Assembly: GCA_964405465.1 (NCBI GenBank)
Contig: CAYONZ010000011.1
Location: 57,800 to 76,443 of the forward strand
Direction of reading: 5' to 3'
Source of the DNA: an uncultured Bdellovibrionales bacterium
Lineage (GTDB): Bacteria; Bdellovibrionota; Bdellovibrionia; Bdellovibrionales; JAMPXM01
DNA: 18,644 bases
Below, in pieces: positions 5,029 to 16,428 of the stretch. The position numbers and the translations under genes were made by a program. Within the stretch, counting starts at the first letter, position 1; every line of letters begins with the position of its first letter. The notes under the pieces are model-generated. The model ran no database searches. It saw only the letters and a program-made list of their open reading frames with translations, and was not told the origin of the DNA.

Positions 5029-5331
5029 TTAAAGCTCGATCCGATCTTTGATAATTCCATCTCGATAAGACGAGGCAATTTGATCTTCATGAACTAAGTC
5101 TACCTTGTAAGGTAACCGTGATTCCTCGATGTCTTCTGCGATTTTCGAAAGATATCCGGAAGGGAAGGGAGTGTTGGGGCTTGAATAGAGAAGATCAACA
5201 TCAGAAAATTTCTGCTGGGTTCCTCTTGCGCGAGATCCAAAAATCCAAACGCGACAGCCCCAGGATTTTAAAGGTTCGATTACATTTTGAGACAAAATAG
5301 AATATTCCTCGGAAGTCATACCTGAGATCAT
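5029..5331 (-). CDS. Minimal nucleotidyltransferase (MNT, pol-beta fold), MntA-like antitoxin partner of the HEPN protein
   Basis: 100 aa. The GS-x10-DxD motif appears as 'GSRARGTQQKFSDVDL'. The start overlaps the stop of the upstream HEPN gene by 4 nt (ATGA). A paralog lies at 7833..8138. Confidence 0.8.
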   Translation of the reverse strand: MISGMTSEEYSILSQNVIEPLKSWGCRVWIFGSRARGTQQKFSDVDLLYSSPNTPFPSGYLSKIAEDIEESRLPYKVDLVHEDQIASSYRDGIIKDRIEL

Positions 5332-5717
5332 TTGTTTTTGAGGTTGGCTAAAAGTTGTTGTGCTTCTGGAAAAAATGCGGTCGCTATTTTTATGACTTCA
5401 ACAGCAATGTCTTCGTCATAGGCGTGAGAGGTCTTATTTCTTCCCTCAATAAAATCAAACCATAAATTTGGATCGGAAATCAATTGATTCTGTGCCATCT
5501 CACGAACGACAGGTTTTGCGGCGGTTGATTTTGATCCAAGAACTTTGGCTGAGACTTTCCATGCGATTTCAATCGAGTACTCAAAACGTTGAATTGCAGC
5601 ATCTCGAACGAACTTGTAAAAAGCCGAACTTTGAGAGTGTTGTTCCCTATTTAACTCATTCAGTGCCTCCTGAAGAGACAGCAAAGCTTTTTCAAACTCA
5701 ACAATACTAACACTCAT
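5328..5717 (-). CDS. HEPN-domain protein (nucleotidyltransferase substrate-binding / HepT-like putative RNase toxin)
   Basis: 129 aa, helical. The C-terminal 'RNKTSHAYDED' fits the HEPN Rx4HxY motif. It is immediately upstream of the MNT gene and translationally coupled to it. Confidence 0.75.
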   Translation of the reverse strand: MSVSIVEFEKALLSLQEALNELNREQHSQSSAFYKFVRDAAIQRFEYSIEIAWKVSAKVLGSKSTAAKPVVREMAQNQLISDPNLWFDFIEGRNKTSHAYDEDIAVEVIKIATAFFPEAQQLLANLKNK

Positions 5718-6647: not shown

Positions 6648-7829
6648 ATGAAATTTTTGATACTTGTTCTTTCGACATTGTGCCTGCCAATGAGTGCGCT
6701 TTCTCAAGTCAATCCCGCGGCGGAGGCCAGCAATCAGTTCGCCTTTGACATGTACAAGGTGAACGCAAAGAACTCAGACAACTTATTTTTCTCTCCACTG
6801 AGTCTTGAAGCGGCGCTGGCGATGACAGCGGCCGGTGCACAAAACGAAACTTTAAATCAAATGACCAAGACCTTGCATTTGCCTCCGAATTACCACCCAG
6901 AGTTTCGAACTTTGCTCGGGCAATTGAAGGGCGGTAGACACTTTCAATTGTTCATTGCCAATCGAATCTGGGGAAGTCTTGGGACTGAATACTATCCCTC
7001 ATTTCTTAATTTACTTCAGGAAAATTACGGTGCCGGCTTATCGGGGCTTGATTTCAAAACGCAACCTGAACCGTCTCGTTTAAAAATCAATGAGTGGGTT
7101 CAGCAGCAAACGAAAGATAAGATCAAAGACCTCTTGCCCCAAAAATCTATCACCGCGGAAACGGATCTTGTTTTGACCAATGCAATCTATTTTAAGGGCA
7201 AATGGGCAGAGCCGTTCAAAAAAGATCTCACGAAAGAAGACAGTTTTTTCGTAGCAGCAACACAAAGAAAGTCGATTCCGTTTATGCATCTCACCTCGCA
7301 TTTTCGCTATGCTGAAAATGCCGACATGCAATTTCTTGAAATGAATTACCTGGGGAATGAACTCGCGATGGACATTCTGCTTCCCAAAGATGGTGTCGAG
7401 TTGTCTTCGATTGAGAAAAAAATAAGTACTTCAGTCCTCGAAGAACTGATTGGCAAAAGTTCATTTGAAGAGGTTCAAGTGTCGATACCGAAATTTAAAA
7501 CTGAATCATCAATGAGTTTGAAAGAGACTTTAACGGCAATGGGCATGCCTTTGGCTTTTGACGAGGAAAAAGCTAACTTTCATGGAATGCGAAAAATTCT
7601 TCCAGGTAAAAATCTCTATATTTCTAAAGTCATGCACAAGGCCTTTGTTGATGTTGATGAAGAGGGAACTGAGGCGGCTGCCGCAACAGCGGTTGTGATG
7701 GGGATTGGGACTGGTCGGCCGTCACGACTTCAGCCAAAAATCTTTAAAGCAAATCGACCTTTTATATTTTTAATTCGCCACTTGAGCTCTGGAGCCATTC
7801 TTTTTATGGGCCGCTATACCCAGCCTTAA
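6648..7829 (+). CDS. Secreted serpin (serine protease inhibitor family)
   Basis: Strong SD GGAGGTG. Signal peptide 'MKFLILVLSTLCLPMSALSQ'. The serpin hinge 'EEGTEAAAATAVVMG' and the C-terminal signature 'FKANRPFIFLIRH' are both present. At 393 aa the length is typical of serpins. Confidence 0.85.
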   Translation: MKFLILVLSTLCLPMSALSQVNPAAEASNQFAFDMYKVNAKNSDNLFFSPLSLEAALAMTAAGAQNETLNQMTKTLHLPPNYHPEFRTLLGQLKGGRHFQLFIANRIWGSLGTEYYPSFLNLLQENYGAGLSGLDFKTQPEPSRLKINEWVQQQTKDKIKDLLPQKSITAETDLVLTNAIYFKGKWAEPFKKDLTKEDSFFVAATQRKSIPFMHLTSHFRYAENADMQFLEMNYLGNELAMDILLPKDGVELSSIEKKISTSVLEELIGKSSFEEVQVSIPKFKTESSMSLKETLTAMGMPLAFDEEKANFHGMRKILPGKNLYISKVMHKAFVDVDEEGTEAAAATAVVMGIGTGRPSRLQPKIFKANRPFIFLIRHLSSGAILFMGRYTQP

Positions 7830-7832
7830 ACT

Positions 7833-8138
7833 CTAGATCTCTACCATTGAGGCTTCGACGTTTTGGCGATAGCTCTTCGCTAGGTTTTTGTTGTTTACGA
7901 GATCGATTTTGTATGGAAACTGAGACTCTTCGAAAAAAATGAGAAGACTCGAGATAAACGTGGAGTCGATCGGGTGGTGTTCATTTTCAATAATCAACAA
8001 ATCAATATCAGAAAATCTGTGGTGCTTGGTGTGGACTCTCGAACCAAAAACAAAAATCTTCGCCTTCCGTGCTTTCAAAGGTTGTATAAGGTGTTGGTCC
8101 AAAAAAGAATATTCTGAATCGGTTAAGCCAAATTTCAC
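7833..8138 (-). CDS. Minimal nucleotidyltransferase (MNT), paralog 2
   Basis: 101 aa with the motif 'GSRVHTKHHRFSDIDL'. It is about 45% identical to the MNT at 5029..5331 over its full length. It overlaps the upstream HEPN gene by 4 nt. Confidence 0.8.
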   Translation of the reverse strand: MKFGLTDSEYSFLDQHLIQPLKARKAKIFVFGSRVHTKHHRFSDIDLLIIENEHHPIDSTFISSLLIFFEESQFPYKIDLVNNKNLAKSYRQNVEASMVEI

Positions 8139-8587
8139 GTCAAGATATCCTCAATTTTTTGACAAAGATCCTCGAAGTAGGGGATTGATTTTTGTGTGAT
8201 AGCGTAGACCTCTTTGGCAACGTCTTCGTCATAAGTGTGAGAAGTTTTATTTCTAGCGGTGAGCAGCTCAAACCAAGTGTCAGTCTCATCGATGAGATTG
8301 TTTCTAGCCATGTCCCGGATTGCCGTGTTCGGAGATTTGAGTTCAAGACCGAGAGCTTTAACTGCAGTTTTCCACGAGAGTTCCACGCAAAACTCGAACC
8401 TTTGAATGCATGAGTCTCGCAGAGCTTTTTGCAGCTCGACTGCTTGTGGTTGACCATTCCGAGCTTCGTCTAAAAGCCTTGAGGATGTCTTTAAAGACGC
8501 AATTACATTTTTTAACTCTTGGGTGGATAGAGAGGTTGATTTCAACTGAAGGCTCCCGGAGAAAAATTGGATCAGGTTCTGGACCAT
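8135..8587 (-). CDS. HEPN-domain protein, paralog 2 (HepT-like)
   Basis: 150 aa with 'RNKTSHTYDED' (Rx4HxY). It is collinear with HEPN1 ('CIQRFEFCVELSWKTAVKALG' versus 'AIQRFEYSIEIAWKVSAKVLG') and carries an N-terminal extension of about 20 aa. Confidence 0.75.
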   Translation of the reverse strand: MVQNLIQFFSGSLQLKSTSLSTQELKNVIASLKTSSRLLDEARNGQPQAVELQKALRDSCIQRFEFCVELSWKTAVKALGLELKSPNTAIRDMARNNLIDETDTWFELLTARNKTSHTYDEDVAKEVYAITQKSIPYFEDLCQKIEDILT

Positions 8588-8782
8588 CCGTGATCTGATT
8601 GAATTTCATTCCCAGAACCGATAACCACATCCTATGGCAAATGCCCCGACTTAGACAACTTTTACCGTGATTCTAGTTTTAATTCTGCTTAATGGCTCCA
8701 AATGGCGACGACAAGACTTTTGCTCAACTAATTCAAATCGACTCAAGAAAATCATGCGCAGATCCTTGACCTAGATTACCTC

Positions 8783-9823
8783 TTAGGGGGCCTGATATTT
8801 TCGGCCCTTTTTTTCGCCGCTCATTTTTAATTTTTTTTCCTTCACTAGATTTTCGATGTCCCGTTCTAAAGTTCGACGAGGGGTCTCTGGTAAAAGTGCG
8901 ACAATGTTTTTCATTTGAAAACCAGATTGGCTCTCGGCAAACTTCATAATTTTTTTTGCGCGAGTCTCGGGGCTAAGTTTTTTTGGTTTCTCAAAAAGCT
9001 GATGCGCCTCTTGAACCACCTCTTTGGTCGCTGTTGCAAAACACTCGATCATAAATTCCAGCATCGGTTGGGTACTCTGAAGGGCTTTGCATTGTTTGAT
9101 AGCAGCATAGTAACGCCCACGATTTCTCATTACGATCGCTTCAATAGGAATGTAACGAGCGATGTTTTCACCGCCCAGCAAGAGCAAGATCTGCTGAAAA
9201 AGTCTGACGGTTCGTCCATTCCCCTCGGCGAAAGGCTGGATGGCGACAGCCAAATAGTGAAATGCAAAGGCTTTGGCAAACGGATTGGACTCTTCGTTGT
9301 CTTTAAGCCATGCCCATAGATCTTCCATTAAAAATGGAACTTGTTTCGGATCGGGACACACTTCGACCTCGGAGGCAGTGGCTTGGTCAACAATTGAAGC
9401 TGGAATCGTACGAAAGCGACCATGCTGGTTTTTTTGAACCAATTCGTCAGTAACCAATTTTTGTAAATCACAAAAGTCGCGAATGCTGGGCATTTTTTTT
9501 TCCGCAGCCAACTTTTCTGCAAAATTGAGTGCATTTTGATAATTTAAAATTTCTTTGGCCGCTCGGTTTTTCGGCTTCATCTGAGACGTTTCCAATAATG
9601 TCGCGACTGTCTCTTCGTCGAGTTTATTTCCCTCGATTTGATTCGAATAAGTGATGGCTTTGATTTGTGCTTGTTGCTGAAGTTGAGATTCGAGAGGAGT
9701 TGCTAGCATTTCATCCAGCAAAGGTTTGCTCTCGGCAATTTGCATGAGGCTTTGTACAAAGCCATCAGTGAGTTTTATTTTAAACGGAATTTTACATTGT
9801 TTTAAATAGGAATAACGACTCAT
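8783..9823 (-). CDS. Fic/Doc-family protein, class II (N-terminal inhibitory helix) with a C-terminal winged-helix-like domain. The catalytic His of the Fic motif is replaced by Gln. The start is reassigned to Met24 of the 369-aa ORF
   Basis: The motif region 'FHYLAVAIQPFAEGNGRTVR' reads against the HPFx[DE]GNGRxxR consensus, with Q at the His position. The inhibitory [ST]xxxE[GN] motif 'SNQIEG' lies upstream. The first 23 codons of the annotated ORF (9824-9892) translate a cluster of CCGCCA/TGGCGG palindromes and are probably not coding. Met18 (9841) remains an alternative start. Confidence 0.7.
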   Translation of the reverse strand: MSRYSYLKQCKIPFKIKLTDGFVQSLMQIAESKPLLDEMLATPLESQLQQQAQIKAITYSNQIEGNKLDEETVATLLETSQMKPKNRAAKEILNYQNALNFAEKLAAEKKMPSIRDFCDLQKLVTDELVQKNQHGRFRTIPASIVDQATASEVEVCPDPKQVPFLMEDLWAWLKDNEESNPFAKAFAFHYLAVAIQPFAEGNGRTVRLFQQILLLLGGENIARYIPIEAIVMRNRGRYYAAIKQCKALQSTQPMLEFMIECFATATKEVVQEAHQLFEKPKKLSPETRAKKIMKFAESQSGFQMKNIVALLPETPRRTLERDIENLVKEKKLKMSGEKKGRKYQAP

Positions 9824-9829
9824 TCGCCC

Positions 9830-9912
9830 ATTATCCGCCATATTTCCGCCACAGGCAAGATGGCGGAAATATAACCGCCAAATATCCGCCATTGATGATG
9901 TGGCGGATATTT
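9830..9912. promoter_or_regulatory. Operator-like array of two perfect 12-N9-12 inverted repeats, ATATTTCCGCCA-N9-TGGCGGAAATAT (9840-9872) and AAATATCCGCCA-N9-TGGCGGATATTT (9880-9912), plus two extra half-sites (9830-9840 and 9869-9880)
   Basis: Read directly from the sequence. There are six copies of the CCGCCA/TGGCGG core with AT-rich flanks within 83 bp. The array lies immediately upstream of, and overlapping, the likely Fic start, and downstream of the XRE-HTH gene. Confidence 0.7.
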
Positions 9913-10021
9913 TAAATTTATAAGTAAAACCAGCATGTTATGTGTGTTTAAAGGATATTTTAGTCTATCAGCCAGAGATTAGAGAGCACCGATAACGGTG
10001 GCCTACGACAAATGAACTGCT

Positions 10022-10375
10022 TTAGGCAACTTTGAACTTCAAATTTGGTTTAATGATGTGCAAAAGCTTAAGCAGTTTATCAATAGTGAAGCGACCGTGG
10101 TGGTAATGCACAATTTCGCTGACCCTTGACTCGCTGACCCCAAGAATTTCTGCCAACTCCCGCTGAGTCACATTCTTTTCTTGGCAATAGCGAATAAAAT
10201 GGGCGCACAACTCATGCTTGGCTCGATCCACAGGACTTGCGTCGCGGGGTAAAATCTTGGTTGGCTTAGATTTACCCAGCTTCTTCTCGATCTCAACCCA
10301 TTCGCTTTCTGTGGGCCATCCTGGAGGTGGAGTTTTGCTGACTCTGATAAGCGTTGATTTTTTTGCTTTCTTCAT
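10022..10375 (-). CDS. XRE-family HTH protein, putative antitoxin (HigA-like position) with a basic N-terminal extension
   Basis: A perfect SD AGGAGGT lies 5 nt upstream. The HTH is 'TQRELAEILGVSESRVSEI'. The start overlaps the stop of the upstream RelE/ParE-like gene (ATGA). The N-terminus is Lys-rich ('MKKAKKSTLIRVSK'). Confidence 0.65.
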   Translation of the reverse strand: MKKAKKSTLIRVSKTPPPGWPTESEWVEIEKKLGKSKPTKILPRDASPVDRAKHELCAHFIRYCQEKNVTQRELAEILGVSESRVSEIVHYHHGRFTIDKLLKLLHIIKPNLKFKVA

Positions 10376-10665
10376 TTCGACCTCCTGTAAGCATTTCTCA
10401 CGCCAATATAACTTTCATCGGGCGGTATCACCCAAATCAGACGATAGGGCTTGCCGCTCCAAACTAGGTCTGTTTCGTAAAACTGATAACCGTCCTCACG
10501 AATCATTTGGGGGAGATAATTTTCATAGTTCAATACACCCAACAGCTCCAAAATCAGTTTGTCGTTGATTGATCGGCTATGTTTTTCTTCATAGTGCGTA
10601 TCAATCCAGACCTCGCTGAACCATGTATCATTGATGAAAAGACTCGCTTCAACGATACGGTACAT
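10372..10665 (-). CDS. RelE/ParE-superfamily toxin-like protein (HigB-like gene order: toxin first, HTH second)
   Basis: The C-terminal 'YRLIWVIPPDESYIGVRNAYRR' resembles the RelE/ParE 'RIIYRVDDE..VYILRIGHRKDVY' signature. About 97 aa from the ATG at 10665; the ORF track's earlier start at 10683 is a TTG. It is coupled to the HTH gene. Confidence 0.55.
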   Translation of the reverse strand: MYRIVEASLFINDTWFSEVWIDTHYEEKHSRSINDKLILELLGVLNYENYLPQMIREDGYQFYETDLVWSGKPYRLIWVIPPDESYIGVRNAYRRSK

Positions 10666-10954
10666 CAGATACCACCCTACCAAAACTTCCCAAATTTGGC
10701 AAGCTATTTGTTCCTATCATAAACCGTCCTTTGAAACAAAATGATGATCTTGGACTCTGTGGTGTTGGGATCATGTAGATCCAGGCCGGCATCCCTTAGA
10801 TTGAAAATCTAGTTTTCCCTATGTAAATCTGCCCGGTCTTTAGATCGCTCCAGTCGCCCATGATTATGAATCGGGCAGGTTCAATACACATGCCGAGCCT
10901 AGCTGTGACATTGCAAAGGTGGCCGTCCAAAACCCATCAGAAATGTCCGCAACA

Positions 10955-15121: not shown

Positions 15122-16209
15122 TTATCGTTTGAGCTGATACACGTTCCCTTCGGCTTTTTGGTCTTCGGGGACAGTGACACCGAGATCCTCAGTCGCTCCC
15201 TCAATATCCTTCCCACAGAGCCTTAAATAGCCTTGTGTGGTCTTAAGGGACGAGTGACCAACGATAGCCATAACCTTTGAAAGAGCGACCCCATTATTTA
15301 GCATCTGCGTAATAAATGTGGCCCTTAGATCATGAAACTTGATGGAACTGATGCCGATTCCCTTACAGAAGTCTCTTGTTATTTGACCGAGGTGTCCTTG
15401 GTCCCATTCCCATAAGCGGGGTAGTACAAATTCGGCTCCTCCGGCCTTTAGCTTGAGTTCCTGTAAGAACTTTCGACATTCCTTAGAGATGGGATAAACA
15501 CGGTTTTTGGCGGTCTTTGTTGGACCCTCGCCGTTGTACCGAGTCCATGCTTTTGAGATATTGATGAATCCCGTTACAAAATCCACATCTATCCAGCGTA
15601 GGGCATGAAGTTCGCCCGAACGCATCCCCGTTAGCAGTGCAAGTGTCCAATGGGGATAAAACTTGTGGTTGATAGATTTGGCTTCACGAAGAAAAATCTC
15701 AATCTCATTTTTGTTAAGCACAGACTGGTTGGCATCCGCGATTTTAACTTTGATACCGACGGCAGGATTTCTGGTTAGAATTCCTTCTTCGATAGCGAGA
15801 TTAAAAATGCGTTTGATGATTTTAATTATTCCCTTGCGAGTCTGGCTAGAAACGCCAGAGACGTGTTCAAAAATTAAATTATGAACTTCACCAGGGGTAA
15901 TCTCATCAATGAAGCGGTCTTTCCAAACTGGCGTTACCCACTTCTCAATATTGAACTTGTAGTTCATATAAGTCGAATTGCGGTATTCGTTCTTATACCT
16001 CTTGAGAAAATGTTCGACCCAGTTGGCCCAAGGCACTTTGTCCTTGTGACCTTCGAGTGAGGTTTTTAGTTCAAACTCCACTCTTTTGGCTTCGCGTTCG
16101 GACGCAATTCCCATCCGTCTTAAGCCAACCTGTTTGCCAGAACTATCTCTAACTTTTACGAATACTTCATACGATAGTTTGCCATCCTTTACCTTTTTTG
16201 AAATTGCCA
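15122..16209 (-). CDS. int: Tyrosine recombinase / phage-type integrase
   Basis: The C-terminal catalytic region 'HDLRATFITQMLNNGVALSKVMAIVGHSSLKTTQGYLRL' carries the R..HxxR..Y signature. The N-terminus 'AISKKVKDGKLSYEVFVKV' looks like an arm-binding domain. The likely start is GTG at 16209, with SD AAAGGAA, immediately after the xis stop. The longer ORF to 16303 would overlap xis by 90 nt. Confidence 0.85.
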
Positions 16210-16212
16210 CAG

Positions 16213-16428
16213 CTATTCCTTTCTGTGGAACAGCATGGAAATTTCGGAAATTCGGAATCTGAGACTTCGGCCAAAGCGATAACAAGGAATGAGTCCTCTG
16301 CACACTTTGATCCGCAACGCATTTTCCGAGATCCCCAAAAATTGGGCGGCAACTCTCGTAGATACATACTCACGCACTATTTTGTTTTCAAAGAACTTCG
16401 AGCTTTCATCCAGCTCGTTAACTTTCAT
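16213..16428 (-). CDS. xis: Excisionase/AlpA-like small DNA-binding protein
   Basis: 71 aa. 'VSTRVAAQFLGISENALRIKVCRGLIPCYRFGRSLRFRISEI' is typical of the excisionase/HTH_17 family. It lies directly upstream of int on the same strand. Confidence 0.7.
   Translation of the reverse strand: MKVNELDESSKFFENKIVREYVSTRVAAQFLGISENALRIKVCRGLIPCYRFGRSLRFRISEISMLFHRKE

Follow-up and report, generated by a model that had tools for sequence, protein, structure and literature searches.

The window, a stretch of 18,644 nt from an uncultured Bdellovibrionales bacterium (contig CAYONZ010000011.1), carries on its minus strand a gene for a Fic protein whose C-terminal part is a winged helix-turn-helix (wHTH), and in which the position of the catalytic His reads Gln. 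The open reading frame (ORF) had been reported at 8783..9892, an uninterrupted frame of 369 aa that is colinear with its relatives. Its coding sequence most likely spans 8783..9823 (346 aa and the stop codon), with the start revised to the ATG at 9823-9821, and residues are numbered here in the 346-aa form. Pfam recognized the Fic domain (PF02661, E-value = 6e-16, 59.5 bits against a cut-off of 24). The motif SNQIEG (Ser60-Gly65) at 9629..9646 on the minus strand follows the [S/T]xxxE[G/N] pattern of class II proteins and lies upstream of the Fic core in the same chain. In the HMMER alignment it stands opposite the inhibitory TVAIEG of FICD, with Glu64 as the inhibitory glutamate, and it is invariant in the 73 aligned family members. 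Both the class II assignment and the intact inhibitory helix, proposed in an earlier reading of the bare letters (hereafter the sequence-only reading), were thereby confirmed. The SoFic model of PADLOC was matched nearly over its full length (E-value = 7.9e-39, residues 45-344 on model positions 49-350 of 361), and the SoFic equivalog cut-off of NCBIfam was missed (46.6 bits vs. 550). Judged by these scores, the protein is a distant SoFic-like class II Fic-wHTH relative, and SoFic orthology is ruled out.

An AlphaFold2 model, computed from 73 family members, reached a pLDDT of 90.3 and a pTM of 0.80. Its last 62 residues are arranged as helix-helix-helix-strand-strand (helices 285-298, 304-310 and 316-328, strands 333-335 and 342-344), and in the winged-helix region, encoded at 8786..8974 (minus strand), the family-invariant residues R288, R317, T318, R321, G336 and Y343 are all kept. 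The full-length Foldseek matches were two-domain proteins of a Fic domain plus a winged helix, namely 4rgl, SoFic (3eqx, 3zcn, 3zec), 7cb8, 7xux and CbFic2 of Coxiella (8cil); the Foldseek probability of the model was 1.00 against 4rgl, SoFic and FICD. The predicted structure supports a Fic fold with a C-terminal winged helix, which the sequence-only reading had already suspected. Dde_2494 of Desulfovibrio G20 (4rgl) is the best match both by sequence among solved structures (HMMER, E-value = 7e-20) and by structure (TM 0.65-0.69 over 346 columns). It shares the two-domain layout and the inhibitory helix with the window protein, but it has a canonical IHPFADGNGR and is functionally uncharacterized.

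The Fic signature of the window protein reads FHYLAVAI-Q-PFAEGNGRTVR, and its loop, QPFAEGNGRTVR, is encoded at 9203..9238 on the minus strand (residues 196-207). The CAG codon at 9236..9238 (minus strand) specifies Gln196 (Gln219 in the 369-aa numbering), and in the HMMER alignments this residue faces the catalytic His of 4rgl and that of human FICD (IHPFIDGNGR). The same alignments rule out an alternative in which the motif His lies elsewhere in the chain. All 119 homologs listed (45-80% identity) carry His at this position. The acidic position of the motif is changed as well, since GAG at 9224..9226 (minus strand) encodes Glu200 where the 119 homologs have Asp (GAT). The rest of the motif had been called intact, which is true against the generic consensus but not against the family, where this Glu stands alone. 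The canonical signature of AMPylating Fic proteins, HPFx[D/E]GNGRxxR with the catalytic His, is not present in the window protein. The two replaced residues are the general-base His, now Gln, and the metal-binding Asp, now Glu. At the DNA level, the six relatives that were read use CAT or CAC for the His, and CAG is one third-position change away, as had been pointed out.

In the wider family, His was found in 127 of roughly 130 motif-spanning representatives, among 150 representatives of 50% clusters listed. The clear exceptions among them are P0137 (Leu), P0229 (Gln, within an otherwise degenerate motif) and P0263 (degenerate), and His loss in these sequences is rare but recurrent. P0137 (718 aa) is a tandem double-Fic protein with Arg at the His position of the first domain (STRPFDGGN) and Leu at that of the second (ILPFNDGNGR), while P0229 (365 aa) reads IQPFLSSSGKT. 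Among 5.8 billion clusters, no other sequence shares the Gln of the window protein, and the variant is a singleton.

Catalytic death of the window protein, as the sequence-only reading had proposed, is supported by analogy because the general base has been exchanged and the corresponding His-to-Ala mutants of SoFic, EcSofic and CccR lack activity. Specifically, SoFic H198A loses both AMPylation and deAMPylation of EF-Tu (bioRxiv 10.64898/2026.07.09.737422), EcSofic is toxic as wild type and non-toxic as H194A (PMC12249575), and H192A of CccR is catalytically dead (PMC9755527). It is improbable that the protein is still an enzyme, with Gln sustaining some residual or changed chemistry in the way suggested for the Gln-starting Doc clade. 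Such chemistry would find the remaining nucleotide-binding loop (PF.EGNGR..R), Tyr238/239 and the inhibitory Glu in place, and the same replacement within the Fido superfamily occurs in Doc clade D2, where 45 sequences share the motif Qx[F/Y]x[D/E][G/V]NKR with Gln replacing His; IbpA was also reported to retain trace activity after a His-to-Ala change (both PMC4454073). However, clade D2 is maintained, single-domain and marked by a kinase-type NKR motif, whereas the present variant is a single sequence within a His-bearing Fic-wHTH family. The inactivity of the mutants of the nearest characterized proteins speaks against an enzyme as well, and further replacements also hit invariant or near-invariant residues of the Fic domain (V142A, next to the predicted beta-hairpin, S227I, T229A and R243K).

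In a leave-one-out analysis over 117 full-length members, with 93 columns at least 95% conserved and 48 invariant, the window protein deviates at 11 of the 93 (median 1 and maximum 5 for the other 116 sequences) and at five of the 48 (at most one for the others). The 11 changes (R50Q, T74A, Y101F, V142A, H196Q, D200E, V225I, S227I, T229A, R243K, and A259I) are separate nucleotide events with differing directions. A neighbor-joining tree groups the window protein as the sister of a five-member clade, with a terminal branch about three times longer than those of the clade, and the replacements on this branch number 3-7 times those on the sister branches. Tajima relative-rate tests counted 43-58 unique replacements in the window protein vs. 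6-20 per sister (p = 1e-3 to 8e-9), while the sister against sister controls gave p-values of 0.04-1, with one of eight below 0.05. Amino-acid drift driven by G+C content was rejected as the cause of this acceleration, G+C being 0.41-0.44 in every copy. A sequencing or assembly artifact at the His codon could be imagined from the single third-position change and from the source, which is probably a metagenome-assembled genome and thus lacks isolate-level confirmation. The single-base error that the sequence-only reading had left as its other option is nevertheless excluded for practical purposes, because a separately built Logan contig (run SRR12487046) encodes the exact protein and is 100% identical to window 7970-10296 (2,327 bp), because ten further conserved-site changes, each a different nucleotide event, accompany the Gln, and because the whole lineage is significantly accelerated.

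Synonymous sites are saturated against all available relatives (dN 0.15 and dS 1.4 between the window and L002; dS 1.4 or undefined elsewhere). A branch-specific ratio of nonsynonymous to synonymous rates (dN/dS) was therefore unobtainable, and the amino-acid relative-rate test and a site-class test were used in its place. Parsimony assigned 56 replacements to the window branch, at rates of 18, 19, 14, and 12% in columns of <50%, 50-80%, 80-95%, and at least 95% conservation, a distribution indistinguishable from flat (chi-square p = 0.56). In contrast, replacements on the sister branches avoid conserved columns (departure from flat, p = 2e-5), and the most conserved class received 11 of 56 on the window branch vs. 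one of 69 on those of the sisters (Fisher p = 0.001). A simple mixture estimate gives about 40 'site-blind' and about 16 ordinary replacements, and site-specific constraint on the window protein appears to be largely gone. This flat pattern, the three- to sevenfold acceleration and the singleton lineage would suit a young pseudogene, without function after the knock-out, whose open frame and intact operator merely reflect recent loss; toxin and defense genes are also often lost, and wild-type EcSofic is toxic (PMC12249575). Such a pseudogene is possible, and we give it somewhat less weight than a retained protein. Chemically, the replacements are no more radical than those of functional relatives (mean BLOSUM62 of +0.59, compared with 0.07-0.93), and they are far more conservative than random missense changes of the gene (-0.28 +/- 0.21, P < 1e-4). 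No stop codon or frameshift was seen in the window Fic frame despite about 40 excess replacements; about 2.6 nonsense mutations would be expected beside 40 neutral missense ones, and a chance escape from them, with indels uncounted, is only moderately improbable (P about 0.08). Also retained are the inhibitory helix, the P-F-x-x-G-N-G-R-x-x-R residues, Tyr238/239 and all the winged-helix invariants. The conservative replacements, the open frame, the kept wHTH invariants and an unchanged operator suggest that constraint has not vanished altogether.

This operator also bears on the extent of the gene, as the reported ORF opens with 69 nt (23 codons) that belong to the operator and are conserved but non-coding. 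Six TGGCGGAWAT boxes lie at 9831..9910. They form two units of the pattern [reverse - 9 nt - forward - forward], set 40 nt apart, and contain two perfect 12-nt inverted repeats; the box search returned these six clustered matches where 2.5 were expected over the whole window. The boxes are unchanged across six Bdellovibrionales relatives, in which synonymous sites are otherwise saturated. The true start of the gene is most likely ATG 9823 because the boxes are conserved, because in-frame stops fall within the operator stretch in relatives L004 and L005, and because in family members of 46-49% identity the gene starts 7-9 nt past the last box; the ORF as first reported should be shortened accordingly. 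The boxes themselves contain ATG (ATGGCGGATA), and the ORF has been over-extended by gene callers and in several database homologs (365-373 aa). A promoter-like site, TTGCCT-17 nt-GATAAT, is located at 9830..9858 (minus strand) inside boxes 4-6, with the -10 element within box 6 and the ATG 6 nt further, and its CTTG and GATAAT are conserved in relatives. The layout points to a leaderless transcript starting 6 nt after the -10 element, and the promoter would be occluded when the boxes are occupied. Neither the boxes, nor the -35/-10 elements, nor the wHTH invariants have been touched on the window branch, which is a further point against a pseudogene.

A metagenome scan for the box pair detected 76 loci (L009-L084). 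A family Fic gene lies directly downstream of the boxes at 11 of them, always with His and Asp, and the array, conserved at the DNA level, precedes Fic-wHTH genes down to 46% protein identity. At 24 or more other loci, the boxes abut the stop codon of a protein of ~440-500 aa with the SLFN_AlbA_2 and HATPase_c_4 domains (Pfam). The C-terminal wHTH of this protein (...SDRTALRDLExL...GEKKGTxYKL) is 33-55% identical to that of the window protein (...PRRTLERDIENL...GEKKGRKY). The pairing suggests that one wHTH-DNA recognition pair has been reused by two defense-associated architectures. Binding of the winged helix to the boxes is predicted from this co-occurrence and from what is known of homologs.

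Concerning these homologs, SoFic (Shewanella oneidensis SO_4266) and EcSofic (Escherichia coli H397) represent a single-gene anti-phage system with the same N-terminal inhibitory helix and C-terminal wHTH. SoFic binds the 100 bp that precede its own start codon (bioRxiv 10.64898/2026.07.09.737422). The likeness to SoFic extends from the structural matches (3eqx, 3zcn, 3zec) and the nearly full-length PADLOC match to the setting, as the window gene is found in an integrase-bearing island beside toxin-antitoxin-like modules. However, identity with SoFic in the structural alignment is only 16-17%, the His on which SoFic activity and EcSofic toxicity depend is Gln, and, unlike EcSofic, the window gene has no conserved downstream AS1-like small ORF. 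A 34-aa ORF at 8651-8755 (minus strand), just downstream of the Fic stop codon, was considered as such an antitoxin and rejected, having no counterpart in the relatives. CccR of Yersinia pseudotuberculosis is likewise a class II Fic protein with a C-terminal HTH, and its dimer binds palindromes at its own -35/-10 and represses the promoter; toxicity and regulation by CccR do not depend on each other, and the dead H192A form still alters gene expression (PMC9755527). Inverted repeats that overlap the gene's own -35/-10 are found in the window as well, here as six inverted and direct boxes around the promoter-like site. In contrast, CccR is an active FtsZ AMPylase secreted by a type VI secretion system, whereas nothing in the window indicates secretion, and its operator differs in sequence and layout from the putative one in the window.

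Our best explanation, to which we assign a probability of roughly 0.55, is that the gene is a genuine lineage-specific catalytic knock-out of a SoFic/CccR-type gene, whose product is now a non-enzymatic DNA-binding autoregulator, possibly nearing gene loss. The ancestral gene would have encoded a class II Fic AMP-transferase joined with a winged helix, under its own promoter and operator. By analogy with the mutants, the present protein would no longer AMPylate or deAMPylate its target, so that the toxin or defense arm would be lost, a loss that selection may have favored, the enzyme being costly. The protein would still fold, dimerize and bind the TGGCGGAWAT boxes via its winged helix, and once bound would repress the leaderless transcript of its own gene, in the manner of CccR and SoFic. 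Protection against phages by the window protein is argued against by the apparently dead catalytic site.

Several points weigh against this explanation. The variant is a singleton, which gives no support to maintenance of the dead form over time, and saturation of dS leaves the case without a branch-specific dN/dS. A site-blind substitution pattern would be expected equally of early neutral decay, and conserved columns were hit at about 0 of 15 positions in the wHTH vs. 11 of 78 in the Fic domain, raw counts that are not statistically distinguishable. Moreover, both the DNA binding and the loss of activity are carried over from homologs. The proposal of the sequence-only reading that the protein has been repurposed for binding or regulation is plausible, given the frame, the conservative changes, the wHTH and the operator, but the site-blind substitutions suit early decay just as well. 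We slightly favor a retained pseudoenzyme or regulator over an early pseudogene.

It is unlikely, though conceivable, that the dead Fic protein has been kept by selection in its non-enzymatic form, either as a dedicated repressor acting on TGGCGGAWAT boxes or as a neutralizer acting in trans on an active Fic paralog or an incoming Fic toxin. As a neutralizer, it could silence the other Fic protein through either the invariant inhibitory helix or the dimer interface, much as in Campylobacter fetus, where Fic1, of class II and with an inhibitory helix, neutralizes in trans Fic2, which has a degenerate motif (PMC5651007). BepC offers another Fic fold in a non-catalytic role, as it binds GEF-H1 and no enzymatic activity was detected (PMC8401265). 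These variants differ from the present one in being clade-conserved and experimentally supported; BepC also keeps its His, and no partner Fic is seen in the window.

Apart from the autoregulator that we favor for the Fic gene, the window holds further modules of an integrase-bearing island, with the integrase at 15122-16303, two MNT-HEPN pairs, a GNAT acetyltransferase, a serpin and an XRE-HTH gene, and the description of an island of toxin modules was broadly right. The first MNT + HEPN (NTase_sub_bind/HepT-like) pair is located at 5029-5717 (minus strand) and appears intact. The second is at 7833-8587 (minus strand), with GSx10DxD in the MNT gene (7833-8138) and RNKTSH (Rx4H) in the HEPN gene (8135-8587). 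Since both pairs are apparently intact, the Fic knock-out lies outside any general decay of the island. The serpin at 6648-7829 (plus strand) is full-length (Pfam, E-value = 3e-112), is placed between the GNAT gene and an MNT-HEPN pair, and is an unusual passenger for a bacterial toxin-antitoxin or defense island. At 10022-10683 (minus strand), an XRE/HTH_37 protein of 117 aa with weak similarity to the HigA and Y4mF antitoxins is preceded, with a 4-nt overlap, by a 103-aa ORF that has no family match. The two may possibly form a toxin-antitoxin pair whose toxin would be novel; they lie directly upstream of the Fic operator.

The Bdellovibrionales relatives found among GTDB representatives are 70-77% identical, and in these the Fic gene adjoins tRNA-Gln(ttg) or a tRNA 3' remnant together with integrase or recombinase genes, while its other neighbors vary from locus to locus. 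The module lies just downstream of tRNA-Gln(ttg) or the 3'-end remnant and near a tyrosine integrase (L006 3397-3472; L002 6-81; L005 6760-7863). No tRNA is present in the window. Because the neighbors differ between loci and tRNA and integrase genes are adjacent, the promoter-operator-gene unit appears to be a self-contained module located at hot spots of integration, in keeping with a SoFic-like single-gene system.

Degenerate Fic motifs are already known, and what is found here is a knock-out in a single sequence of a family in which His is otherwise strictly kept; catalytic death is a fairly ordinary fate for a toxin or defense gene. The window gene is a natural counterpart of the laboratory His-to-Ala mutants of SoFic/CccR-type enzymes, in which the site-specific constraint on the Fic domain relaxes after catalysis is lost, with no loss of the fold, the inhibitory helix, the winged helix or the operator. 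A more reusable by-product of the analysis is the TGGCGGAWAT array that travels with one type of wHTH in two unrelated defense-associated architectures and amounts to a testable recognition code. If the protein is expressed and binds DNA, it would lend support to the view that the regulator role of Fic-wHTH proteins can outlive their enzyme role, and if its non-enzymatic retention has been selected, this would be a natural conversion of a toxin to an antitoxin, or of a toxin to a regulator, inside the SoFic defense family.

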